From the IMG/VR virus record IMGVR_UViG_2778261180_000005: a DNA stretch of 36,121 nt. One strand, written 5' to 3'. Both the position numbers and the translations under genes were made by a program. The notes beneath the pieces were generated by a model. It saw nothing but the letters and a program-made list of their open reading frames with translations, was not told the DNA's origin and did not search any database. This document shows, one piece after another, positions 961-31,464 of the stretch. The stretch is from a virus (Duplodnaviria > Heunggongvirae > Uroviricota > Caudoviricetes). Position 1 is the first letter of the stretch; every line of letters starts with the position of its first letter.

Positions 961-1000
961 GCCCCTATCGTTATAATACGCGGTAGGGGCGTTTTTGTTT
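961..1000 (+). terminator. rho-independent terminator
   Basis: GCCCCTA(961-967)/TAGGGGC(984-990) stem followed by TTTTTGTTT. Confidence 0.7.
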
Positions 1001-1009
1001 GGAAATGGT

Positions 1010-2689
1010 ATGAAAACTAAACTGTATTCGTATATTCGCTTCTCGTCTATGAAGCAAGCGGATGGTAGTTCTTATGAACGCCAGAAGAGAACAGCCGCAG
1101 AGATAGCCGCAAAATATGATCTTGAGCTAGTTACAAGCTATCAGGATTTTGGTGTATCTGCATTCAAAGGGGCTAACAGTAGAACAGGTGCACTATCTCG
1201 CTTTCTGGATGAGATTGGTCGATCCGTTCCGGTTGGTAGCTGGCTGGTTGTGGAAAACTTAGACCGTATCTCTCGCCAATCCATCATTGAAGCACAAGAG
1301 CTATTTCTCTCGATTATCCGTAGGGGAATAACTATCGTAACTGGCATGGATGGTAAGGTCTATAGCAAGGAATCGGTTAATGCCAATCCTATTGATTTGC
1401 TGTTGAGTGTCATGTTGTTTGCGAGAGCTAACGAGGAAAGTCAGACTAAGCGCAATCGTACTAACTCAAGCGCATTGATTAAGATTAAAGCTCATCAAGA
1501 AAATCCACAAAATCCGGCTGTTGCAATCGAGGAAATTGGAAAGAATATGTGGTGGACTGATACCACATCTGGTTATGTGCTTCCTCATCCGGTCTTCTTC
1601 CCTATTGTTCAGGAAGTTGTGGAATTACGCAGGAATGGACGGTCAACCGCCGAGATACTGGATCACCTTAACGCGACATACACACCACCACCAGCCGCAA
1701 GTCACAAGAGGCATTCAAACTGGTCACGGGCAATGATTGAAAGGTTGTTCCATACCCGCGCTTTGATTGGTATCAAGGAAATCTCTGTAGATGGCGTTAA
1801 GTATGAGTTAAAGGATTATTATCCTCGTGTGCTAGATGACGCTGAGTTTTATCACCTTAAGAAAAGCATTGGTGTTAGAGCATGTAACTATGGAGACAAG
1901 GAAGAAGTTAAACCTATTCCCTTGCTTAGTGGTGTTGGTCTATTGAAATGTGAACATTGCGGTTCCGCTATGGTTAAGGTGAAAGGAACTAACAAACGTC
2001 CTAACCAATATCGTTATTCATGCGATGCAATGCGCTCTAGTCGTATTGCATGTGTGCATACAAACTGGAGTTTTCGAGGTGATCAATTAGAGAAAGCTGT
2101 ATTGCAATTGCTGGCTGATAAAATCTGGATTGCTGAGGATAAGGCTAATCCGGTTCCGGCTTTGAAAGTACAGATTGATGAAATATCACGCAAGATTGAT
2201 AACCTGATTACCCTTTCTGCTATGACAGGAGCAACGAAGGAGCTAGCCGATCAGATTACTACCCTCAATAGCGAGCGTGAAACACTCTACAATCAAATTA
2301 AGATGGCAGAAGAGGAAATGTATTCTGTTGACTCTCAAGGCTGGGAGAAGCTCGCAGAATTTGATTTAGAAGATGTTTACAACGAGGATCGCATTAAGGT
2401 CCGGTTTAAGATTAAGCAAGCTCTAAAACGGATCGGGTGTAGCAGGATTGACAAGTACAAAAACTTGTTTGTACTGGAATACATCGATGGCAAGACCCAG
2501 AGAGTTGTAATAGAAAATTCAAGAGGACCGAGGAAAGGCCGGATCTTCGTTGATTTGAAAACTATCAATGATAGACAGATTCTGGAAAGTAACGGGCTTG
2601 TTTTGCATCCATGTTTAGACATGCTGACAGATAAGAACTGGAAACCAGAAGAGGAAATACCAGGTCCATTACAGGAATTTGGAATTTAA
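1010..2689 (+). CDS. large serine recombinase (integrase-type), 559 aa
   Basis: N-terminal resolvase-like catalytic region (YIRFSSMKQ..SYERQ); central recombinase domain; Cys-rich zinc-ribbon (CEHCGSAMVKV...YSCDAMRSSRIACVH); C-terminal coiled coil. ATG at 1010 preferred over the TTG at 995. Confidence 0.85.
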   Translation: MKTKLYSYIRFSSMKQADGSSYERQKRTAAEIAAKYDLELVTSYQDFGVSAFKGANSRTGALSRFLDEIGRSVPVGSWLVVENLDRISRQSIIEAQELFLSIIRRGITIVTGMDGKVYSKESVNANPIDLLLSVMLFARANEESQTKRNRTNSSALIKIKAHQENPQNPAVAIEEIGKNMWWTDTTSGYVLPHPVFFPIVQEVVELRRNGRSTAEILDHLNATYTPPPAASHKRHSNWSRAMIERLFHTRALIGIKEISVDGVKYELKDYYPRVLDDAEFYHLKKSIGVRACNYGDKEEVKPIPLLSGVGLLKCEHCGSAMVKVKGTNKRPNQYRYSCDAMRSSRIACVHTNWSFRGDQLEKAVLQLLADKIWIAEDKANPVPALKVQIDEISRKIDNLITLSAMTGATKELADQITTLNSERETLYNQIKMAEEEMYSVDSQGWEKLAEFDLEDVYNEDRIKVRFKIKQALKRIGCSRIDKYKNLFVLEYIDGKTQRVVIENSRGPRKGRIFVDLKTINDRQILESNGLVLHPCLDMLTDKNWKPEEEIPGPLQEFGI

Positions 2690-2725: not shown

Positions 2726-2750
2726 AAGGGGTACATTCGTACCCCTTTTG
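2726..2750. terminator. bidirectional intrinsic terminator between convergent genes
   Basis: AAGGGGTAC attc GTACCCCTT perfect hairpin, flanked by an A-run upstream and TTTT downstream. Confidence 0.7.
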
Positions 2751-2762
2751 AATTTAATTGCG

Positions 2763-3761
2763 TTAGAGAGCCTCTAAAGGGCTTAAATCGAGTTCTAAGT
2801 TTTCCGGTGTTAAATCAGCTAACGGTGCATTCATCCACTGCGATAAATCTCGTTCTATGTCTTCATCACTAATGTAGTTGTTCAGATTGATTGCGTTGGT
2901 ATCATCAAAATACATTGGCTTAGATGGGTTGGTGTGGATGTATTCATTGATGAATGATTTAACATCTTTCAGCTTGCTAATCGGTAGCGTTTCTGTGAAT
3001 CCGCTATTCATTACCTTACGTGGGATTTTCTTGCCCTGAATATTCTTTTTAATCCCCATTTCTAAATCACCAGCTTTCCATCCAATGTTAAACAAATGTG
3101 AGCATTCAAAGGTGATTTTCTCGCTGGTGTGCTTCTGGTGTTCTCTTACCCGTTGCATCGGATCTTTGCGAGTGGTAATTCCATATTTGAAAAACTTCTC
3201 GCCAACACGAATTAGATAAAAGTGCATAGGGCGCTGTGCAAACTTGTTTCTGATAACCTGTTTTCTACCATTCTGAATTGATTTAAGTACACCCCTAACC
3301 AAAGGGCATGTTAACCCGCCTTGTCTGCGGTTATTGTGTAAATCACCTTTCTTGTGAATCTTTCCGTGGCACTTACAACGAAGAATTAGTTTAGTGTCAA
3401 CACCCTGATAAGGTTCAGCCAGACCTAACACATCCCACCCTATCGGCTTGTAGAACTTGCGAGCGTTTTCTAAGTGTTCTTCTTCGGTAAATCTAAACTT
3501 CTTCTTAGGCGGTGATACTCTATCTTTGCCAGTAAACTGACCAGTTAGAACATGACTAATACATGGCGTTTTAACCTTTCCGTTAACTTCTATGCAAACT
3601 TTGGTGTTCTGGAATGGTTTCTTTACAGGAAGCACAAAACCACTGTATAACCATCCATGCGCTTGACAAACTTTAATGATTCTGGTTTCATATTCGACCG
3701 GAGGGGTCGCACGTTTGCTTTTTGCGGTAAATTCGATATCCTTTGCTAAAGTAGTATTCAT
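2763..3761 (-). CDS. Zn-finger plus T5orf172/GIY-YIG-like domain protein (homing-endonuclease-like), 332 aa
   Basis: Start moved to ATG at 3761 (SD GAGGA 7 nt upstream); CxxC..CxxC-type cluster (CKCHGK..TCPLV) followed by FYLIRVGEKFFKYGITTRKDPMQRVREH. Confidence 0.65.
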   Translation of the reverse strand: MNTTLAKDIEFTAKSKRATPPVEYETRIIKVCQAHGWLYSGFVLPVKKPFQNTKVCIEVNGKVKTPCISHVLTGQFTGKDRVSPPKKKFRFTEEEHLENARKFYKPIGWDVLGLAEPYQGVDTKLILRCKCHGKIHKKGDLHNNRRQGGLTCPLVRGVLKSIQNGRKQVIRNKFAQRPMHFYLIRVGEKFFKYGITTRKDPMQRVREHQKHTSEKITFECSHLFNIGWKAGDLEMGIKKNIQGKKIPRKVMNSGFTETLPISKLKDVKSFINEYIHTNPSKPMYFDDTNAINLNNYISDEDIERDLSQWMNAPLADLTPENLELDLSPLEAL

Positions 3762-3796
3762 ATTAGTGTCCTCGAAAATAATAAGTTCACTACTAT

Positions 3797-4249
3797 TTAT
3801 TGAGAAAAATTTGTTGTAATGGTTGAAGACCACGGGCATGAGTAGTAACCACGACCGCCACCGATCAAGCAAATGGTCGGACGGAAGCCAGTAAGATCGC
3901 AAAATGAATCAGTGTCATGTGCTGGGGAACGATGCTCTGCTTCGTTAGAGAAAATGTTGGCTACCGGAGATTCCACTTTAACTTCCGGTGCTTCTTCAAC
4001 ATCTGACTTAACTTCTTCGACCACTGGTTCAACTGCCGGAGATTCTTCTTTTGTTTCTTCAATGACGATCTCAGGTTCTTTCATTGCTTCAACCAGAGAC
4101 GGATCAACTTCGTCGAATACCACTTTATCATCTGCGGTGTCTGCTGCCAGAATAAGATCGTTAATACTGGTTCCTTCTGCCGGAGTTTCTTCTTCCATTT
4201 CGGAAGCCAGTTTAGTTAATTCGGTTTCTACGAACTCGATCATCAACAT
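3797..4249 (-). CDS. acidic hypothetical protein (150 aa)
   Basis: Glu/Asp-rich ORF; the opposite-strand ORF 3873..4277 is Ser/Thr-rich as expected for an antisense artefact; weak RBS. Confidence 0.4.
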   Translation of the reverse strand: MLMIEFVETELTKLASEMEEETPAEGTSINDLILAADTADDKVVFDEVDPSLVEAMKEPEIVIEETKEESPAVEPVVEEVKSDVEEAPEVKVESPVANIFSNEAEHRSPAHDTDSFCDLTGFRPTICLIGGGRGYYSCPWSSTITTNFSQ

Positions 4250-4289
4250 TAAAGGTAATGCCTATAAGATAAATTAAGTGAGGTTTTTT

Positions 4290-4871
4290 ATGATGAATGA
4301 TGTGCGCAAAGCATGTGATATCCCGTTCAATTTTATCCGCACCAAAAATGGCAAAGCGCCATCACATCCAATTGATATGGAAGCAAGGATCGTGACCCGT
4401 ATTGAAAACGAGGGTTTACCCTTGATTTATCACGGATTCAAAGGTGAGTATAAATCAATCAATAGCCGTATTGTGCTAGAGTGTGAAAGCTGCGCAAGAA
4501 TCAGAGATATAACAGCAAAACAATTCTTACATAATCCTACTGTGTGCCCGTGTAATCGTAGCAAATATGACAACAAATATAAAAATGGGCAACCAGTATT
4601 ATATGTTATGCGGTGTGGTGATGTGGGTAAGGTTGGAGTAAGTCACAATGTGTTGACGAGAAAACATAAGCTAAGATGCCAGAATAAGATGAAATTTGAT
4701 ATCATCGAGACTTTCGAATTTCAAGACGAAAAAGACGCATACGCGGCAGAATTGTTTATCAAGAAAAACCTAGTAAAAGGTGATTTTGATATTAAAGAAG
4801 GTGCTACAGAAACGTTTGTTTATAATGAAAAAATGGTCAGAAATATAGCTAACGTCGCCAGCATATTCTAA
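4290..4871 (+). CDS. Zn-finger plus T5orf172/GIY-YIG-like domain protein, paralog of 2763..3761 (193 aa)
   Basis: ATG at 4290 with AGTGAGG SD; CESC..CPC cluster followed by LYVMRCGDVGKVGVSHNVLTRKHKL. Confidence 0.65.
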   Translation: MMNDVRKACDIPFNFIRTKNGKAPSHPIDMEARIVTRIENEGLPLIYHGFKGEYKSINSRIVLECESCARIRDITAKQFLHNPTVCPCNRSKYDNKYKNGQPVLYVMRCGDVGKVGVSHNVLTRKHKLRCQNKMKFDIIETFEFQDEKDAYAAELFIKKNLVKGDFDIKEGATETFVYNEKMVRNIANVASIF

Positions 4872-4872
4872 C

Positions 4873-4905
4873 AAAAAAGCGCCCACTAGAGGCGCTTTAA
4901 TTTTA
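4873..4905. terminator. bidirectional intrinsic terminator
   Basis: AGCGCC cactaga GGCGCT hairpin between an A6 run and TTTAATTTT; sits between convergent genes. Confidence 0.7.
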
Positions 4906-5256
4906 TCCATTCCACCGTGATTTTTTTGATCTGGAATCAATATGCGTAAAGGTTTTATATTTTCCTAAGCCGTATTGAGTAGGATATTTCCCATCAAGAT
5001 AAGCATGGACAATATCAGGGGAGACACCCTTGACCACAATGTCAGCCGCACGGCCTCGAACGTGATAGCTGTTGGTTGCCCCGCCTACATTCTTGTTATG
5101 AGCCGGGCAACGGTTGCCACTGTTAATAATCACTGGTTTACCGAAGTGTTCTCGTACATCCTCAAGAATTACCAGTAATTCAGCGTCGATTGTATCATAA
5201 TCACATTTTCCGCATTTACATTTAAATTCCTTGCGAGAAAAATGTTTGCTTAACAT
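4903..5256 (-). CDS. endolysin, peptidase M15 family (117 aa)
   Basis: Motifs SRKEFKCKCGKC, GGATNSYHVRGRAADI and FTHID typical of zinc M15 peptidoglycan peptidases; SD AAGGGGG. Confidence 0.85.
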   Translation of the reverse strand: MLSKHFSRKEFKCKCGKCDYDTIDAELLVILEDVREHFGKPVIINSGNRCPAHNKNVGGATNSYHVRGRAADIVVKGVSPDIVHAYLDGKYPTQYGLGKYKTFTHIDSRSKKSRWNG

Positions 5257-5265
5257 ATTACCCCC

Positions 5266-5613
5266 TTAGATCATTTCGAAGATATAACCAATAAAGCGCA
5301 TACCCTTGATATAATAAGGAGCAGTGCCTACACACACCGCGCGTGCATCACCCAGACAGTTAAAGCTATAAGGATTAACCACATCAACTTCTTGCCCTAC
5401 ACGAAAACGATATTTAGGACGTTTAGCCAATGTAGCGACACAAAACACGGTCCCTTTTTCATGATCGCGGATACATTCTTTATATTGTTTATGTTTAACT
5501 CTCTTCGCCTCAAAATCATGTGTCATAGATTCTGGGCTAATGCCATTAATAAAAATACCGGAAAGCTGATCGACCGGATAAGTAGGAAATTCAGTGAAAA
5601 TATTTTTAGCCAT
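5266..5613 (-). CDS. hypothetical protein (115 aa)
   Basis: ORF with GGGGG SD 7 nt upstream; no recognisable motif. Confidence 0.55.
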   Translation of the reverse strand: MAKNIFTEFPTYPVDQLSGIFINGISPESMTHDFEAKRVKHKQYKECIRDHEKGTVFCVATLAKRPKYRFRVGQEVDVVNPYSFNCLGDARAVCVGTAPYYIKGMRFIGYIFEMI

Positions 5614-11805: not shown

Positions 11806-12365
11806 TATACATTCTCCACTAATTCGAATTTCATCTTGCCAATCTGGGCGATCTTCCAATCGATATTTTCAGTTTTGAGAACAAATTCACCTTCTACGTT
11901 CTGATACTTGATCACCTCACCCGCCAGGACGTTCTGACGCAAGTTAGGGAAGAGTTTCATTTCGCCACCTGATTTCACATCTTCGGTGATCGTGTAGATT
12001 TTCTTGTGGTTCTCAAACTGTACAATCGTTCCCGCTTTCAGTGTTCCGGTGAAGTTGGAGAGTCTTACCTTACGCCCACCGCGAGCAGTACCAGCAGCAG
12101 CCGTAACCATCTGGCGTACATCACCTGTATATTTTGAAAAGTAAGACAGTGGCACACTAAAAGGACGACCAAAAAGGTGACGTGCTACAAATTCTTTTAC
12201 TTCGTTAATATCCTGAGCCATGAAATTCGCGGTAAATTCTGCTTCGTAAAAATGGATGCCAGTAAAGCGACGTTGGAACTTACCAGAAATAGATTGCGCC
12301 TTGAAGAAAGGCTGTTTTGATTTAAGAGTAAAATCTGTGATTTTAATATTCTTGGATTTGAACAT
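11805..12365 (-). CDS. minor tail protein (gpM position), 186 aa
   Basis: Second ATG (12365) chosen: GGGGGC SD, and the first ATG is buried in the terminator stem. Confidence 0.55.
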   Translation of the reverse strand: MFKSKNIKITDFTLKSKQPFFKAQSISGKFQRRFTGIHFYEAEFTANFMAQDINEVKEFVARHLFGRPFSVPLSYFSKYTGDVRQMVTAAAGTARGGRKVRLSNFTGTLKAGTIVQFENHKKIYTITEDVKSGGEMKLFPNLRQNVLAGEVIKYQNVEGEFVLKTENIDWKIAQIGKMKFELVENV

Positions 12366-12367
12366 AG

Positions 12368-12414
12368 AAAAAGCCCCCATAGTTTTATGATTATTTATGA
12401 CTATGGGGGCTTTT
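12368..12414 (-). terminator. strong hairpin/terminator after the tape-measure gene, overlapping the next start region
   Basis: 14-bp perfect inverted repeat AAAAGCCCCCATAG...CTATGGGGGCTTTT with a 19-nt loop and a following U-run. Confidence 0.6.
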
Positions 12415-12416
12415 AA

Positions 12417-14846
12417 TTACATCTTACGGCGCTGTGCGTCTTCTACCGCCTGAGCAACTAACTTAGCGTGACGTTTGATAGCATCCATGACCATCTTGTC
12501 TGAGCTATTAACGTTGCCGTTAATGTTCAAAGGCGCATTAACTTCAATCGGCTGAGAGTTACCACCGCCTGATTTTTGAGCAGCAAGGAAGTCTTTCAAA
12601 TCACCGTTAGTACGCTGATCAACTACTCGTTCACCCTTATCAAGCAACCATGTACCCTCACGAGGGATGTTATCAATACCATCATGAGCCATACCGCTAA
12701 CGTTAGTAGACTTGATGTTTGCGATGCTCCCCATGTTCTGAGAAACAGCCAATGCAGCAGCCGCGATTTTTTGACCTGTGGTTACGTTGGTTGGATCGTT
12801 CCATGCATCGGTAGCAGCCGTCCACATGTTCACCGTCGCTTGTCCAATGGAGAATGCTTTATGAGCAGTGAAAGCCATCTGCATAGCTTTAGTGTTTTCC
12901 TGCCCGAAGAGAGTCATTGCAGCAGCAAAACCGCCATACATATCATCGGCTATTGACTGTCGAGCATCAGCATATTTCTTCTCAATTGCAGCCATTCGTT
13001 TTTGATGGTTTTCATTGAGTTTTTCTAATGCTTCCATCCGTTTAGCCGGATCGGTGATCCCATCAATCTTGAGTTTATCGGTTTTATAATCTTGTTCAGC
13101 GTCCGATTTCTCTTTATCGATTGCATTAAATTTAGCAAACGGGTTATTCGAGTCCTGATAATCTAAACCATTGGTCAACTGATTGGTTTTAAAACCATCC
13201 ATTCCCTGTAAAGAATTTTCAATCTGAGAATAGTTTTGCTCGGTATCGTTCACACGACGCATATATTCTTCGTAGGAGATAGCTTTACCATCAAGTAACC
13301 GTTTATGGCTTTCTAGCTCGTTGTCCCTTATTTGTTGCAATTGTGTTAAGGCATTCAAAGCATCAACCGGATCAGCACCTAAAACCATTTTGTATACGTT
13401 TTCAGTATTCTGATCGATTAAGGATTGGCGTTTCGCGGCTGCGTCTTGCTGAGAGATTAAGCCCAGATCTAAAGCAGTGTCCAAATCTTTCAAGCTGGCT
13501 TCTAACTGCTTGTTCTGAGAAGCAATAGACGCGGCGACCTGCCCTTGCAATTTAACATCAAGTGCATTCAGACGCTTGATTGCATCCTCACGTTCTTTCT
13601 GTGCTTTTTCTGCGGCTTCCTTAGCCTTTTTAGCTGCCTCTTCCGCTTTCTTGCGTGCTTCTTCTTCGGCTTTCTTCTCATTGCCAGACTTACCCAATGA
13701 TTCTGGTCTTACTGGTTTATTTGGTATAGTCAAATCACGGTTAGGATCTGCCTTGCGAGTTAGATGTTCCCCGTTATCGACAACAATCAGAGAGCCATTT
13801 TTCTTATAAGAATCACCAAAACGTTTCTTAAATCCTTCAACATCAAAGCCAGCAGTACGAGGATCGACACCAGCACCACGGATCGCGGCCTTTTCCCAAT
13901 CTGCCAGATTATTCCAACGCTTTTCTTTATTGTACTTGTCAATAATCTTTTGAGCGTCTTTATGGTTGGTGTTAAGAATACCACCAGTTGCGGTCTTGCC
14001 TTCTTTATTCAGTCGATCTAATGCCCTGAATAGAGAACTCTTTTCCCAATCAATATTAAACCAGTCAAATAGCCAGTTTAAGCTATCAACCAAAGGACCA
14101 GTAATGGTCATGCCGACACCTTTCAGGTTATTTTCCAGCTTATTAATATTCTGAGAAAATTTATCATATTTTTTAGCGTTTTCTTCGGTGACGTTAACAG
14201 ATTGATTCTGAATAGCGATCATCGCCTCTTGAGCACTATTATATTTCTCAAGCTGGCTGGTCATATGGCTTGAATCACTGGCTAAAGATTCCATCATGAA
14301 CTTGATTTCAGCCATTGATTTTCCGGCTTTCTTCATGTCATAGAACACTTGGATCGCCGCTTTCATACCACCTTGCGGATCTGTCATGAAGTGAGCATAG
14401 TTTTCTAACTTAAGGCCAACCGATTCTAAGTCATCAGCAATACCACCACCGTTAGCCCACGCATCACCCATCTTATCTAAGGTGTCTTTGTTGATATCGC
14501 CAAATTTTTCAACTGTTAAGCCAGTGCCAGAAAATTCCTTTTCCAGTCTTTGAAGGGATTCAATCGAGAGTCCGGTCGCCTTAGATACTTCTGAATACTG
14601 TTTAACGTATTCCGCGCCAGCTTTAGCGGCTGCAACCACTGCGGTCGCAACTAAGCCGATACCACCAGCAGCCAAACCAGCAGAGCCAGCGATCCCACGA
14701 AGAGACCCAGTCAGACCAGATAAGCCACCACCAAAATCAATATTACTTGCCTTTTCAGACAAACTATCGAGAAGGTCGGCGGCTTCATTGGTACTTCTCC
14801 TTAGACCTTTATTATCCCCTTCTATTGTTACTATATGTCTTGTCAT
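12417..14846 (-). CDS. tail tape measure protein (809 aa)
   Basis: Large coiled-coil-rich ORF downstream of the G/T chaperones; Lys/Glu/Ala repeats (KKAEEEARKKAEEAAKKAKEAAEKAQ); AAGGGG SD. Confidence 0.9.
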   Translation of the reverse strand: MTRHIVTIEGDNKGLRRSTNEAADLLDSLSEKASNIDFGGGLSGLTGSLRGIAGSAGLAAGGIGLVATAVVAAAKAGAEYVKQYSEVSKATGLSIESLQRLEKEFSGTGLTVEKFGDINKDTLDKMGDAWANGGGIADDLESVGLKLENYAHFMTDPQGGMKAAIQVFYDMKKAGKSMAEIKFMMESLASDSSHMTSQLEKYNSAQEAMIAIQNQSVNVTEENAKKYDKFSQNINKLENNLKGVGMTITGPLVDSLNWLFDWFNIDWEKSSLFRALDRLNKEGKTATGGILNTNHKDAQKIIDKYNKEKRWNNLADWEKAAIRGAGVDPRTAGFDVEGFKKRFGDSYKKNGSLIVVDNGEHLTRKADPNRDLTIPNKPVRPESLGKSGNEKKAEEEARKKAEEAAKKAKEAAEKAQKEREDAIKRLNALDVKLQGQVAASIASQNKQLEASLKDLDTALDLGLISQQDAAAKRQSLIDQNTENVYKMVLGADPVDALNALTQLQQIRDNELESHKRLLDGKAISYEEYMRRVNDTEQNYSQIENSLQGMDGFKTNQLTNGLDYQDSNNPFAKFNAIDKEKSDAEQDYKTDKLKIDGITDPAKRMEALEKLNENHQKRMAAIEKKYADARQSIADDMYGGFAAAMTLFGQENTKAMQMAFTAHKAFSIGQATVNMWTAATDAWNDPTNVTTGQKIAAAALAVSQNMGSIANIKSTNVSGMAHDGIDNIPREGTWLLDKGERVVDQRTNGDLKDFLAAQKSGGGNSQPIEVNAPLNINGNVNSSDKMVMDAIKRHAKLVAQAVEDAQRRKM

Positions 14847-16093: not shown

Positions 16094-16147
16094 TATTCTT
16101 TTCCTTCTATTTTAAACAATAGGGCACATACCCGTAATTCTATTTAT

Positions 16148-16450
16148 TTAGCGGTTGCTCAAACGTCTATAACGAAGATGAGCGACCCCCCTATTTGTGC
16201 TAACGGTAATTACCGCCCCTTGCGGTGCAATACAAGAATGGATCTGTCCCCAATCATGCCCCTTATGGCTTCCAGAAACACAAAAACCATGAATAAACAA
16301 TTCAGAGTCACCGCCGCCACCACCGGAAGAATGAGCACAGAATGAAATAGTCCCGAAAGCGTCGGCTGTCCAACCGTTAGGAATATCAAACCATCCTTGA
16401 TTTGCTTTACCCGCCCTATTCCCCAAAGCGCCATCTACCCAAAATGCCAT
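16148..16450 (-). CDS. small Gly-rich protein, paralog 3 (FDIPNGW family)
   Basis: One of three tandem paralogs sharing M.xW...FDIPNGW...G-rich...(Y/H)FKF; start overlaps the upstream stop. Confidence 0.6.
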   Translation of the reverse strand: MAFWVDGALGNRAGKANQGWFDIPNGWTADAFGTISFCAHSSGGGGGDSELFIHGFCVSGSHKGHDWGQIHSCIAPQGAVITVSTNRGVAHLRYRRLSNR

Positions 16451-16755
16451 TAGTGCATTCTCCTGAATTTGAAATAATGCAATCCACCTTTACCCAATGT
16501 AAAGCTAACGGTAGCACCAGCGCCAACTAAAGAACTAGCGCCCCAACTTCCGGCATTACCAGCGTGATGACCTGATTCAATCAATCCATTTACAGCCAAT
16601 TCAGAATCAAGATCACCAGCACCGTTAATGGCTTCCATATGAGCAAAAACAATTCCGCATGAATCAGTGACCCAACCGTTGGGGATATCAAAATATCCAC
16701 CATTAGCCCAAATACTAATAGCGTTTGACATTCTTTGATTTATCCATCCAGCCAT
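16450..16755 (-). CDS. small Gly-rich protein, paralog 2 (FDIPNGW family)
   Basis: Tandem paralog, tightly packed with its neighbours. Confidence 0.6.
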   Translation of the reverse strand: MAGWINQRMSNAISIWANGGYFDIPNGWVTDSCGIVFAHMEAINGAGDLDSELAVNGLIESGHHAGNAGSWGASSLVGAGATVSFTLGKGGLHYFKFRRMH

Positions 16756-16757
16756 AA

Positions 16758-17054
16758 TTAAAACTCCATGAATTTAAAATATTCAACACCACCTTCACCC
16801 CCTAAACCAAAGGAGACGGTGCAGCCAGCAGGAACAAACGAATTTATAGTAGATCCCCAATTGGACCCACCACGACGACGAGCAACGGTCAAACCATCTA
16901 CGTTAATATGTGCATCAGACCATCCACCACCAGCATTATGACGCATGACAGCAACGCCAGCGCGAGCAGTACCATAGCCGTTAGGAATATCAAATACATG
17001 CCATTTTAAAGCATCGATTTTAGTATTAATTTCACTACTTACCCAATATCCCAT
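16758..17054 (-). CDS. small Gly-rich protein, paralog 1 (FDIPNGY family)
   Basis: Tandem paralog; AAGGA SD; preceded on the mRNA by hairpin GCGGGGA..TCCCCGC (17068..17085). Confidence 0.6.
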   Translation of the reverse strand: MGYWVSSEINTKIDALKWHVFDIPNGYGTARAGVAVMRHNAGGGWSDAHINVDGLTVARRRGGSNWGSTINSFVPAGCTVSFGLGGEGGVEYFKFMEF

Positions 17055-17091
17055 ATAAGAATCCTTAGCGGGGATTTCTCCCCGCTTCCAA

Positions 17092-20000
17092 TTACCCTAA
17101 TTTAGCTTCAATTGCAGCAAGACGTTCACGAAGAAGTTTATTTTCTTCGCTCATTTCTTGGACCGCTTTAATTAAAAGCGCGTTCACTGCGGAGTTTGAA
17201 ATTGTTAAAATTTCTTCTGGGTTATCAAGAGATCCGACATTAGAAGTGCTAACAGCTTCCGGTAAAATTTCTTGTAAATCCTGTGCGATAATACCAATCT
17301 CATGTGCGATGACTTCTCTGTCAGAAAGAGACTTAACTTTATCGTAGGTTTTAACTTTTAGTTTATTTACCTTATCTACCGCATTTTCTTCGTAGTCTTC
17401 AACGTTAATTTTCAGACGACGGTCGGAACGAATATAAACATCGTTACAGTAAACCGACGCACTAGATGTGAAATCACCATTTGCAGCCCATGAATACCAG
17501 CCGCCTTTGTTCATATGCATCATTACGGTAGCTTGACCACCGCCAGCATGAACACCCATTGCCGCAAGATGATCAACACCCCAATGAGTTGCTTTCCAAA
17601 TTGAATATGCTTGGGTATGTGAATCCTGACAATCTAAGAGAATACCAGCAGGACGGTTGCGCCAGTCATCCCATGCACCACCAGAAACCTCACCACGGAT
17701 AAGAGCGTATTCACCATTATATGGAACACGTTCTCCCGCTTTAATCATTGCACCCTGGAAGTGATGACTAAATGAACCCCCATGATTATTTCGTATATGT
17801 AAAATACCATCATCTGTAGCCCAGATAACAGCCTTTTCCGATTCGCTGTCATCTCTAAACCAGATATGGCGTGCACCAGTTGAGTTTTTGATGGTTATTC
17901 CGGTAGGTCCATGCACGGTCAAAGCACCAGCTACATCAAATAAAACGGTGTTATCTGTTCTACGTTCAGTATAGAAGTGATAACCTTTGGAATCGCCGAT
18001 TTCCATTACTGCCGCGCGTCCAACTTCTGAATTTCCCCAATTGTTGATAGAGAATCGTTCAGAGCTATTATTCATCTGATTTAGGTATAATGTACCGTCA
18101 GTGAATGTTTCGCCAAAGAATCTAGTTTTAATGCTATTGGTTCCGGTGCGTTCAAATTCGGCTAAAAATCCTTTTGAGTCACGAAGACTTAAAACGTTAT
18201 TTCGACCTGTATTGCTTGCCCCCCAATGGACGAGTTCCATATAGTCCATAGATTGACGAGAACCAGATTTAAATAAAAGGTTGTCTTCGAGACGAGTGCT
18301 ACCATCAATTCCCAGGTGCAAACAACGAGCGGTTTCAGTACCACCTAAATATAGTCCACCATCATCAAAATTATAGCTGAATGGTCTGCGATTATTCCAA
18401 CTACCAAAAGAATCTTTTAAATTGGTAGTAAGAATATGGAAGCTAGAACCGTCATTGCGTAACATCAAACCATAGTTACCGCCTTTAACAGCCAAACGAG
18501 CATTTTCAGATAATGCAACTTCGCTATTCATTACAATTTTCTGGCCTTTACCACCAGTAATATGTAATTCACCGTCTTCGATCAAATTTATCGAGTTTTG
18601 ACCGTTATCGTTCCACCAAATAAAATCTTTGGTCGTCAAATCACCAAAACCAAACCAGCCATTACGAACATCTTGACCAGTGCGATAATCCATAAAATTA
18701 AAATGGCTTGCTTCGTTTGGTCCTCGACGAATATCAATACCAGCATTAGAACCGGAACCTAAGCCACCATCGATGGTCAATCTACGAATATGCAAACCGG
18801 TTACAGCCGAAAGCAATAATTGTTGGGTTACATCGGTATATCCAGTAGCAAGACGATAATTTTGGTCATCAACACTTTCGTGCCAGATAGTGGCAGGAGC
18901 AGAACTACGGAAGCGACGCAACATCTTTTTAGCATTTGTCGGTTGTTCGTTCATATGCTCAATGTCGTATTGGCCTTGATGGTTTCCAGCAAAATTTAAC
19001 GTTCCACGGTTGCTAAAGTTATTGAACGATGAAATGTTAAGAGCATCAAAAATTTCATCTGCAACAGGTTTTTCACCACCCAGATATTCAGGAGTATCCA
19101 ACAGGTTTAAAGAAACACCACCGGAAGAAACTTGATATTCTGCTAAAACAAATCCTGTATGTGCACCGTAGTAAGCGTAAAGATCGTAATTATCACCATC
19201 GGTTGGAATAGCGCAAAAATGTTGTTCATAATGCCAAATAGTATAATACGCATTGAATACAACACCTTTCGGGCTATTGTTGCCGCATCGAATCACCAAT
19301 TCGATAATATTGGCTTGTCCATTCATCCCGACGTTATAACCGTTACCACCAACCAAACGGATCTTAGCGGTGCGACCGTGTTGCTGTGGCATTGTCAAAG
19401 TGCCTAGTTTAAACCAACCACCCTCGATCCCAAAATTAAGCGTCTTCTGGAACAGTCGGTCAATTTCTGCTTTCGAATATGCGCCAATTTCAGCCGGAGT
19501 AGGTTTATCGCCTTCATGATACATGCGGTGAGAATATGACAAGTTACCCAATTCATCGTAGCCGTATGTTCTTACCGTATGAACCGGATTAGACCCATAA
19601 GTGAACTCAAAGCCACGAGCATGATTAACACCAGATGGATGCGGAACATGCAAGATCATTGCAATATGACCCGCCAGGTCATTCATGCGGAATGCACCAA
19701 AGTAGTCAAGATTACGCGCACTCGGATCATCAAAATAGTTTGCGGTCTTAGACAACAAATAACCATCAGTATAAGTGTTTACGTGTTTTTTGATGTACTT
19801 GCCATCACTCGATCCGTCGGCTGCATCAATACGGCTTTCTAAGCGTGCCAGTTCAGAATCAGTGTAAGACTTGTTATTGTCAACTTTGCTATGAATTGCT
19901 GAATTTTTGGCTTCAACATCACGGGTTAATGCTGCGACGTTATCCGCTGCCTCTTGCTTATTAGCCGCAATCACACCAGTAAGGTTATTGTAGGTGTCAG

Positions 20001-20613
20001 TTAACTGATTTTCCGCATAGACTTTATTTGCTGCGATAGTGCGGTCAGTTTCTGTCTTAATCAGATCAACTTTGTCATTGATTGCTTTGTCATTACTTGC
20101 GATTGTCGCGTCGGTACGGGATTTAATATCATCAACTTTTTTATTGATGCGGGTGTCCAGTTCCTGAGTTGCTACAGCAGCCGCATTTTTATTAGCGTTG
20201 ATGGTATCCGACAATTCAGCTTTAACACCAGCAAGATCGGAAGCAGCTTTATTTTTATTAGCTTCGATTGTCGCGTCGGTTTCGCGTTTAATTACATCAA
20301 CTTTATTGTTAATTTCTGCATGATTTGCTGCGATAGTAGAATCAGTAGTTTGTTTAATTTCATCTACTTTAGCGTGAATATTGCGGTCATTTACTGCAAT
20401 TGTGCTATCCAATTCTTGTTTGTTAGCATCAACTTTAGATTCTAGTGCCGCGTGAGTTTCAGGAGAAACAGAGATTTGAACTACTTCATGATCTCGGTCT
20501 TTGGTAAAAATAACATGGTCTTTAAGGTTGATTGCCACCTCACCGACCTGTAATTGTTCCGGCGTTGGCTTTTTGCCAGAAACATTAGTTCGTTTAAATT
20601 GGATTGATTGCAT
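17092..20613 (-). CDS. side tail fibre with C-terminal intramolecular chaperone (peptidase S74-like) domain, 1173 aa
   Basis: N-terminus KPTPEQLQVGEVAINLKD; about six ~22-aa repeats (KVDxIKxxTDxTIxAN); C-terminus SDRRLKINVEDYE...GIIAQDLQEILPEAV typical of autocleaving fibre chaperone domains; GAGGTGA SD. Confidence 0.85.
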   Translation of the reverse strand: MQSIQFKRTNVSGKKPTPEQLQVGEVAINLKDHVIFTKDRDHEVVQISVSPETHAALESKVDANKQELDSTIAVNDRNIHAKVDEIKQTTDSTIAANHAEINNKVDVIKRETDATIEANKNKAASDLAGVKAELSDTINANKNAAAVATQELDTRINKKVDDIKSRTDATIASNDKAINDKVDLIKTETDRTIAANKVYAENQLTDTYNNLTGVIAANKQEAADNVAALTRDVEAKNSAIHSKVDNNKSYTDSELARLESRIDAADGSSDGKYIKKHVNTYTDGYLLSKTANYFDDPSARNLDYFGAFRMNDLAGHIAMILHVPHPSGVNHARGFEFTYGSNPVHTVRTYGYDELGNLSYSHRMYHEGDKPTPAEIGAYSKAEIDRLFQKTLNFGIEGGWFKLGTLTMPQQHGRTAKIRLVGGNGYNVGMNGQANIIELVIRCGNNSPKGVVFNAYYTIWHYEQHFCAIPTDGDNYDLYAYYGAHTGFVLAEYQVSSGGVSLNLLDTPEYLGGEKPVADEIFDALNISSFNNFSNRGTLNFAGNHQGQYDIEHMNEQPTNAKKMLRRFRSSAPATIWHESVDDQNYRLATGYTDVTQQLLLSAVTGLHIRRLTIDGGLGSGSNAGIDIRRGPNEASHFNFMDYRTGQDVRNGWFGFGDLTTKDFIWWNDNGQNSINLIEDGELHITGGKGQKIVMNSEVALSENARLAVKGGNYGLMLRNDGSSFHILTTNLKDSFGSWNNRRPFSYNFDDGGLYLGGTETARCLHLGIDGSTRLEDNLLFKSGSRQSMDYMELVHWGASNTGRNNVLSLRDSKGFLAEFERTGTNSIKTRFFGETFTDGTLYLNQMNNSSERFSINNWGNSEVGRAAVMEIGDSKGYHFYTERRTDNTVLFDVAGALTVHGPTGITIKNSTGARHIWFRDDSESEKAVIWATDDGILHIRNNHGGSFSHHFQGAMIKAGERVPYNGEYALIRGEVSGGAWDDWRNRPAGILLDCQDSHTQAYSIWKATHWGVDHLAAMGVHAGGGQATVMMHMNKGGWYSWAANGDFTSSASVYCNDVYIRSDRRLKINVEDYEENAVDKVNKLKVKTYDKVKSLSDREVIAHEIGIIAQDLQEILPEAVSTSNVGSLDNPEEILTISNSAVNALLIKAVQEMSEENKLLRERLAAIEAKLG
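20010..20470 (-). repeat. in-frame tandem coding repeats within the side-fibre gene
   Basis: Recurrent DNA blocks (such as CGATTGTCGCGTCGGT...ATCAACTTT) encoding the KVDxIK..TDxTIxAN repeats; coordinates approximate. Confidence 0.6.
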
Positions 20614-31303: not shown

Positions 31304-31464
31304 ATTATTTATAACGAGAAATTTTTGTCTAATTTGAAAGGAATTGGTATTCAGTCGGCTTCGCCTCCTTCATAGATTTTGATTAAATCATCATCAAAAC
31401 GAAGAAGTATCTTTAGAATATAAGAATCTTTCTTTTGGAGAAATAATAATCCGGAAGCAATTTA

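Follow-up and report, generated by a model that had tools for sequence, protein, structure and literature searches.

Predicted homing-endonuclease-type genes bracket a Krischvirus-derived inh fragment in a temperate Escherichia coli prophage

The virus record IMGVR_UViG_2778261180_000005 (Caudoviricetes; 36,121 nucleotides, hereafter the window) is a rare temperate prophage of Escherichia coli, which carries a variable locus of three open reading frames (ORFs), termed gene A, the acidic ORF and gene B, at positions 2763 to 4871. Homology identifies the acidic ORF as a truncated Inh, the prohead-protease inhibitor of T4-like phages, and most of its length is nearly identical to the inh gene of RB49-like Krischviruses. 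Genes A and B are assigned as new members to the CapR/T5orf172 type of homing endonuclease, and their nuclease activity is predicted. With a probability of roughly 0.6, we propose that A and B are free-standing homing endonuclease genes (HEGs) bracketing a T4-like inh scrap, which together form a miniature HEG-island that exchanges DNA with Krischviruses. The island occupies an accessory slot that separates the integrase from the lysis genes. The T4-like phage origin of its cargo is the main point, and had been missed by an earlier note made from the letters of the window. The module comprises the following features.

2763..3761, minus strand: gene A, 332 aa, with two CapR-like modules, a T5orf172/GIY-YIG-superfamily domain and an acidic tail
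3797..4249, minus strand: the acidic ORF (inh'), 150 aa (148 aa from a start at 4243), an internal Inh fragment by homology (PHROG 1051, E 4e-21)
3829..4243: Krischvirus conversion tract of 415 bp, 99.5% identical to inh of RB49-like phages
4290..4871, plus strand: gene B, 193 aa, with a single CapR zinc finger and a T5orf172/GIY-YIG-superfamily domain; a GTG at 4278 is the alternative start
4815..4871, plus strand: the final ~57 nt of B, left as a remnant in all B-less relatives

The acidic ORF has an isoelectric point (pI) of 4.05, with 35 aspartate and glutamate against 9 lysine and arginine residues. Its PHROG match is annotated as "minor head protein inhibitor of protease", and it aligns with residues ~49–186 of the 241-residue Krischvirus Inh. 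At the nucleotide level, positions 3829–4243 are 99.5% identical to inh of RB49-like Krischviruses, with 20 phage records at an identity of at least 99%. Both ends of inh' are specific to the prophage: it starts with MLMI and its last ten codons encode SSTITTNFSQ followed by the stop. Compared to the T4-like protein, it lacks the N-terminal 48 and the C-terminal ~55 residues, has a new start and stop, and lies outside any head-gene cluster, its neighbors being the integrase and the endolysin. By this homology the acidic ORF is a truncated T4-like Inh and not a nuclease inhibitor. Diverged prophage alleles of inh' are found in the relatives L008 and L006 (relatives are designated by L numbers), with identities to Krischvirus inh of 73% and 67%, respectively, the best of any phage in the collection. 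This divergence indicates that inh' is an old resident of the slot, which was recently overwritten with Krischvirus sequence in the lineage of the window only. We rejected the idea that every prophage inh' is a near-identical copy from a different T4-like genus, as the L008 and L006 alleles reach 73% and 67% at best.

A further tract of recent exchange was found in the relative L013, where ~480 bp of uvsW (nt 841–1320) are 97–100% identical to Krischvirus 011D4, with flanks of 48–80% identity. The inh' tract of the window and the uvsW tract of L013 are two independent recent conversion tracts from Krischvirus to prophage. The module is also mobile among prophages. Between the window and prophage L002, gene A is 99.8%, inh' 98.9% and B 99.3% identical, compared to 86.8% nucleotide identity for the recombinase and 96.3% for the endolysin, with a sharp mosaic boundary between the recombinase (995–2689) and the module (2763–4871). 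As the module is near-identical beside a diverged recombinase, it is exchanged as one block between prophages whose backbones have diverged; this is the co-conversion signature, in which a HEG and its flanks are more alike than the backbone.

Comparison of the relatives revealed that the cargo between or beside the two genes is variable. The full module of A, inh' and B is present in 7 of the 57 E. coli genomes with the locus, and the same layout occurs in L008 from a diverged E. coli and L006 from Salmonella, whose B genes are 87% and 55% identical to that of the window. In L014 (E. coli STEC1575), A and B enclose a piece from the interior of Krischvirus Hoc (2820–3224, minus strand; residues 198–324 of 404, 58% identity, E 4e-54) with its own start codon. 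Many other relatives have the A-like and B-like genes adjacent, with a full uvsW directly after the B-like gene, whose UvsW product shares 70–80% amino acid identity with that of Krischvirus; some of these uvsW-type relatives add uvsW.1, uvsY (47% identity, E 1e-52) or a fragment of gp51/27.

L013 4513–6003, L025 3415–5361, L026 6570–8414: Krischvirus-type uvsW cargo, in some with uvsW.1/uvsY, directly downstream of the B-like gene

The genes hoc, inh, uvsW, uvsW.1, uvsY and 51/27 are neighbors in Krischvirus genomes, and all cargo at the slot across the prophage family derives from one contiguous T4-like region of ~8 kb. A related gene is also present in the Krischviruses themselves: JK32 possesses an A-like gene, JK32_00173 (361 aa), between uvsW and uvsW.1, 1.6 kb from inh, which is absent from 011D4. 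It is homologous to A along the whole length, with an E value of 4e-9 for the N-terminus and 35% identity (E 7e-23) for the nuclease domain. A presence/absence insertion in otherwise collinear genomes is thus seen for the A-like gene of JK32 versus 011D4, as well as for an extra gene of L015 and L016 described below; at the locus of the window, the genomes lacking A or B keep remnants of them.

Profile searches recovered nuclease-family homology for both genes, with matches to the PHROG 681 "endonuclease" family at E 3e-20 for A and 2e-22 for B. Gene B matches the Pfam CapR homology domain (PF21817) above threshold, at 26.0 bits versus a cut-off of 24.2, whereas the T5orf172 match is 16.8 bits versus a cut-off of 20, and the MUG113 and GIY-YIG matches are also sub-threshold. 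Five more distant members of the B family (P0023, P0030, P0031, P0033 and P0034) pass the T5orf172 cut-off. The zinc finger of B, C65xxC68...C86xC88, is invariant among the 6 B homologs, and the CxxC...CxC motif defines CapR-type domains (PMC10448857). It is followed by the motif block LYVMRCG..GKVGVS..R...GATETF, of which Y105, K114-x-G116, R124 and E174 are invariant in the same homologs. The AlphaFold model of B has a predicted local distance difference test (pLDDT) score of 75 and a β-β-α-β-α order. With a ratio of nonsynonymous to synonymous substitution (dN/dS) of 0.14, B is kept as a protein, and RefSeq labels a protein identical to B as "GIY-YIG nuclease family protein". Searching a profile of B against 1.84 billion proteins yielded 221 representative relatives, mostly longer and with repeated finger matches, which makes B a minimal member of the CapR/T5orf172 family. 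In all contexts examined, B is confined to this prophage family; several phage-sized contigs of 150–162 kb with a B-type gene turned out to be pieces of bacterial chromosomes bearing the same prophage. The C-terminal motif YNEKMV..I.N, encoded by the last ~57 nt of B, is native to the gene even in 55%-identical homologs.

Gene A consists of a degenerate CapR-like module 1, a module 2 with the pattern CxCH...C, a nuclease domain at residues ~178–278 and an acidic C-terminal tail. Its Pfam matches to CapR and MUG113 are weak (16 bits for CapR, against the cut-off of 24.2 that B passes), and a CapR match at E≤0.01 is obtained for 4 of the 16 A-family members. The earlier note had placed a cysteine cluster in both proteins; that of B is the CxxC...CxC finger, whereas that of A is a variant. 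In the motif block FYLIRVG..FKYGITT..R..EH...GFTETL, the residues Y182, K192-x-G194, R204 and E257 (numbered from the ATG at 3761) are invariant among the 16 A homologs. The AlphaFold model of A (pLDDT 81) has a β-β-α-β-α topology and matches 112 predicted viral structures of BFVD at E≤0.001, the best at 1.5e-13. The top matches are proteins of lytic phages, including a zinc-ribbon protein of Krischvirus JEP8, many annotated as "CapR homology domain", one as "GIY-YIG domain", one as "homing endonuclease" and one as "T5 Orf172". Gene A is conserved across E. coli, Salmonella and Proteus under strong purifying selection, with a dN/dS of 0.09–0.17. We dismissed a role of A as an integrase directionality factor, given its nuclease architecture and the ~20 relatives that keep the recombinase without A. 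The acidic C-terminal tail of A (window 2763–2830), ...PLADLEPEDLELDLSPLEAL, is kept even in A alleles with only 36% overall identity, and a remnant of it, DLELDLSQL followed by the stop, persists in the "empty" variants. This conservation, together with the remnant, places the left edge of the exchangeable cassette inside the last ~20 codons of A.

Direct BLASTP comparison of A with B gave a marginal match (E 0.012). Family profiles built from alignments of 16 A and 6 B homologs aligned by hhalign with a probability of 86% and an E value of 5e-6 over 127 columns (A113–264 against B49–181), a span that covers one zinc-finger module and the nuclease domain. The earlier description of two paralogs with a zinc finger and a T5orf172/GIY-YIG-like domain, flanking an acidic gene next to the recombinase, thus holds with corrected gene starts, and "diverged paralogs" is acceptable in the sense of distant homologs that appear to share one architecture. 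The motif block proposed there, a hydrophobic stretch followed by YxxR-x-G...K-x-G, is real in both proteins, and neither family shows variation in its Y, K-x-G, R and E residues. By analogy with I-TevI-type enzymes, the Tyr of strand 1, the K-x-G of strand 2, the Arg of helix 1 and the presumed metal-binding Glu would have catalytic roles. No match to A, the acidic ORF or B was found among the NCBIfam profiles. None of the ORFs of the locus is disrupted, and dN/dS values of 0.09–0.23 indicate purifying selection.

The three ORFs lie where the earlier note had placed them, between a serine recombinase and an M15 endolysin. Genes A and inh' share the minus strand in a tandem arrangement, from which B diverges. 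Gene A is convergent with the recombinase on the plus strand, and B with the endolysin on the minus strand. The bidirectional terminators noted on both sides of the module were recovered as hairpins that score on both strands, and 11 terminator-like sites were observed in the region versus 2.1 expected from shuffled sequence.

995..2689, plus strand: large serine recombinase, the prophage integrase (Pfam Resolvase, Recombinase and Zn_ribbon_recom; PHROG 95 integrase), which bounds the variable locus on the left
2726..2747: bidirectional terminator-like hairpin in the gap between the recombinase and A, with a 9-bp stem of which 5 pairs are GC
4876..4898: bidirectional terminator-like hairpin in the gap between B and the endolysin
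4903..5256, minus strand: M15 peptidase endolysin (Pfam Peptidase_M15_3, E 2e-28; PHROG 894 endolysin), right flank of the variable locus

The start of A is most likely the ATG at 3761, which is preceded by GAGGA, rather than the TTG at 3902, and the longer ORF that reaches the TTG is unlikely to be a real form of the gene. Likewise, the ATG at 4290, preceded by GAGG, is a more likely start of B than the GTG at 4278. Both starts agree with those annotated by RefSeq in identical prophages. An assembly chimera at the locus was ruled out, as the whole module is present in 7 complete E. coli genomes at 97–99.6% identity.

The prophage was found in 60 of 5,426 complete genomes, chromosomal every time, and the plasmid collection gave no match to the window. 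Among sequenced phages, there is no near relative of the window besides the inh tract and a T-even-like tail-fiber segment; over its first 25 kb, no near match in the phage collection was found apart from these segments. The tail-fiber ORF (17092–20613, minus strand; 1173 aa) contains a Gp34_trimer domain and a Peptidase_S74 chaperone domain. Positions 16132–19750 are 87–95% identical in nucleotide sequence to the distal long-tail-fiber gene 37 of T-even phages and Krischviruses, and this second locus of T4-like exchange has no HEG beside it in the window. Additionally, a stretch of 75 bp at 31378–31451 shares 80% identity with Krischvirus 011D4 (L001 1038–1111), in a region that is intergenic or belongs to a hypothetical gene.

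The B-less and "empty" relatives retain the final ~57 nt of B together with a 68-bp patch of inh and the terminal part of A, joined at short repeats. The persistence of the B remnant marks these relatives as deletion derivatives, and insertion of B into a clean empty site was rejected, for the B-less relatives hold remnants of B, inh and A. The small ORFs annotated by RefSeq in these variants, such as the 65-aa WP_000361806.1 (window 4770–4940 and L005 2035–2232, both on the minus strand), are chimeras that read antisense through the terminator hairpin, the 3' remnant of B, the inh patch and the tail of A, and are probably not genes. In the "empty" variant L005, the recombinase is followed by an unrelated stretch of ~340 bp (1691–2034), which may encode a small lipoprotein-like peptide. 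The sibling prophages L015 (2580–3617, minus strand) and L016 (2198–3235, minus strand) possess an extra gene of 345 aa, which combines CapR-type repeats with a T5orf172-like motif block and has inserted between the endolysin and the homolog of window ORF 5266–5613. Near the tail genes of L013, RefSeq annotates a NUMOD3-domain DNA-binding protein (12285–12532, minus strand), and this domain is typical of GIY-YIG and HNH homing endonucleases.

In the proposed mechanism, the predicted nucleases would introduce double-strand breaks at specific sites of the region where its copy is heterologous or lacks the HEG, either in sibling prophages or in Krischviruses present in the same cell. Repair by recombination would then transfer the nuclease genes and the adjoining DNA into the cut copy. 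Such repair would keep the locus an exchange hot spot and leave gene fragments behind as hitch-hikers. The ancestral home of B may have been the inh/uvsW site of T4-like phages, which is the position of segE in T4. A selfish pair of this type, one of two possibilities raised in the earlier note, fits the PHROG 681 and CapR matches, the T5orf172 domain in the B family, the fold matches, the recombination boundary and the JK32 insert.

Several results weigh against the proposed HEG-island. The nuclease activity of A and B and their target sites are read solely from motifs, both proteins of the window fall below the Pfam T5orf172 threshold, and a Foldseek search of the two models against the PDB gave nothing significant and returned no solved GIY-YIG structure. 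The conversion tract of the window ends 46 bp short of the ATG of B at 4290 (34 bp from the GTG at 4278) and has no HEG inside. Moreover, conversion from Krischvirus to prophage requires the prophage copy to be the recipient, with the break or invasion occurring there, which a prophage HEG alone would not cause. A B-type gene in a T4-like phage was not found in 50,697 phage genomes, IMG/VR, metagenome contigs and 5.8 billion proteins; the placement of its home at inh/uvsW therefore comes from synteny alone. The B-less and "empty" relatives are deletion derivatives and not clean unoccupied homing sites, and the purifying selection on A across genera is equally expected of a domesticated gene useful to the host.

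The last point leads to a rival explanation, in which the locus is a domesticated module against Krischviruses. Here A and B would be nucleases directed at the hoc-inh-uvsW region of an invading Krischvirus, which they would cut as Odn of ICP1 cuts PLE, or else CapR-like repressors of its head genes, and the Inh and Hoc truncations would be dominant-negative decoys that interfere with head maturation. The accessory slot beside the integrase, the strong purifying selection on A across genera and the cargo fragments that keep ORFs with their own start codons in several lineages are consistent with this explanation. So is the 99.5%-identical Krischvirus DNA, which implies that cells or prophages survived contact with the phage, and there are precedents of domesticated T5orf172 and CapR proteins (PMC8096241, PMC10448857). 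However, none of the defense profiles was matched: PADLOC-DB gave no defense-system assignment, only short and weak matches (E 0.004–0.007) to PD-Lambda-1 over 22–44 residues of A and to HamB over 58 residues of the acidic ORF. Most relatives have lost the module partly or wholly, leaving the full version in 7 of 57 E. coli genomes, and the cargo varies by lineage, with uvsW-type variants having no fragment cargo. In addition, homologous cargo in the prophage would hand the phage a repair template, and the purifying selection on inh' may be inherited from T4-like donors. We thus consider a domesticated module unlikely. A bolder version is more doubtful still: the island would be a prophage weapon whose CapR-finger nucleases cut hoc-inh-uvsW of Krischviruses, while the fragments would either sabotage repair by serving as its template or, as dominant-negative decoys of Inh and Hoc, poison head maturation, and would be refreshed by conversion from circulating phages. 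If true, such a weapon would represent a recombination-based, non-CRISPR, sequence-specific anti-phage memory.

Alternatively, A and B might be inactive or irrelevant relics, and the T4-like tracts might have arrived by ordinary homologous or illegitimate recombination when Krischviruses infected lysogens. The T-even-derived tail-fiber segment at 16132–19750, with no adjoining HEG in the window, the frequent microhomology deletions at the locus and the exclusion of any HEG from the conversion tracts would all fit such passive mosaicism. Yet both genes have remained intact, their motif residues do not vary and their dN/dS is near 0.1. The cargo of the slot, moreover, comes entirely from a single contiguous T4-like region of ~8 kb, in which a HEG is documented for T4 and a related one is present in JK32. 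As cargo from this known HEG site is invariably accompanied by HEG-type genes, namely the A-like and B-like ones, passive mosaicism is rather improbable. The other possibility of the earlier note, a nuclease with an acidic inhibitor, DNA mimic or immunity factor, would have the acidic protein neutralize A and/or B. The pI of 4.05 between two basic proteins (pI 9.1–9.6) and the operon-like position upstream of A are what such a toxin-immunity pair would predict. Against it, the acidic ORF is by homology a fragment of the T4-like head protein Inh, a non-acidic Hoc fragment replaces it in L014, and A-like and B-like genes are present without any acidic gene in L013 and L019–L028; conversely, the acidic ORF is retained where B is deleted in other relatives. 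The obligatory co-occurrence of nuclease and inhibitor is thus not observed, and this idea is largely refuted and very improbable. Overall, a miniature HEG-island exchanging DNA with Krischviruses remains the explanation we favor.

The locus provides direct sequence evidence that virulent T4-like coliphages and a temperate prophage still exchange DNA, in the form of two independent tracts with 97–100% identity. It is the repeated and recent nature of this traffic, at one locus marked by homing-endonuclease-type genes, that is surprising. Prophages are suggested as reservoirs of such nucleases and of T4-like alleles, which is relevant to phage-therapy cocktails using Krischviruses. Gene B encodes a compact, single-finger CapR-T5orf172 predicted enzyme of 193 residues, whose probable target region inh/uvsW is narrow and directly testable.

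Comparison with known systems showed that the closest positional counterpart of B is SegE of phage T4. The free-standing GIY-YIG endonuclease gene segE is located between inh and uvsW of T4, and its product cleaves uvsW (PMC2988022). Being beside inh' in the window, or directly upstream of uvsW as a B-like gene in L013 and L025–L028, B occupies the position of segE and belongs to the same nuclease superfamily. They differ in family, as B has a T5orf172 domain with a CapR finger compared to the classical Seg protein, and in context, as B resides in a prophage rather than a T4-like genome; the two are therefore likened by position and superfamily.

The organization of the locus also resembles the published HEG-islands, in which cargo bracketed by HEGs is nearly identical between otherwise unrelated phages and the nuclease genes lie at the boundaries of exchange (Barth et al. 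2023, PMC10448857). In both cases the cargo is bracketed by HEGs on both sides, is >90% identical between phages otherwise without nucleotide similarity, and is accompanied by unstable HEG content; here, A and B flank an inh' that is 99.5% identical to Krischvirus over 415 bp. Despite sharing this layout, the published islands exceed 10 kb and carry essential genes or operons, whereas the tracts here are 0.4–0.5 kb and the cargo consists of truncated, non-essential fragments (inh', hoc') or accessory recombination genes, with a temperate prophage and virulent T4-like phages as partners.

At the level of domains, A and B are most similar to the CapR/T5orf172 HEGs of vibriophage ICP1 and other lytic phages, which are likewise free-standing, located at exchange boundaries and composed of one or more CapR fingers followed by a T5orf172 domain (Netter et al. 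2021, PMC8096241; Barth, Dunham & Seed 2023, PMC10448857). By contrast, A and B are found in a temperate prophage, B is a minimal single-finger protein of 193 residues, and the zinc sites of A are partly degenerate. JK32_00173 of Krischvirus is only distant from A (26–35% identity), lacks the acidic tail and resides in a lytic phage. Domesticated T5orf172 and CapR proteins act in conflicts between phages and their satellites (PMC8096241, PMC10448857). These HEG derivatives, CapR of PLE and Odn of ICP1, have a domain repertoire in common with A and B and operate between mobile elements that share a host, whereas A and B keep both domains.

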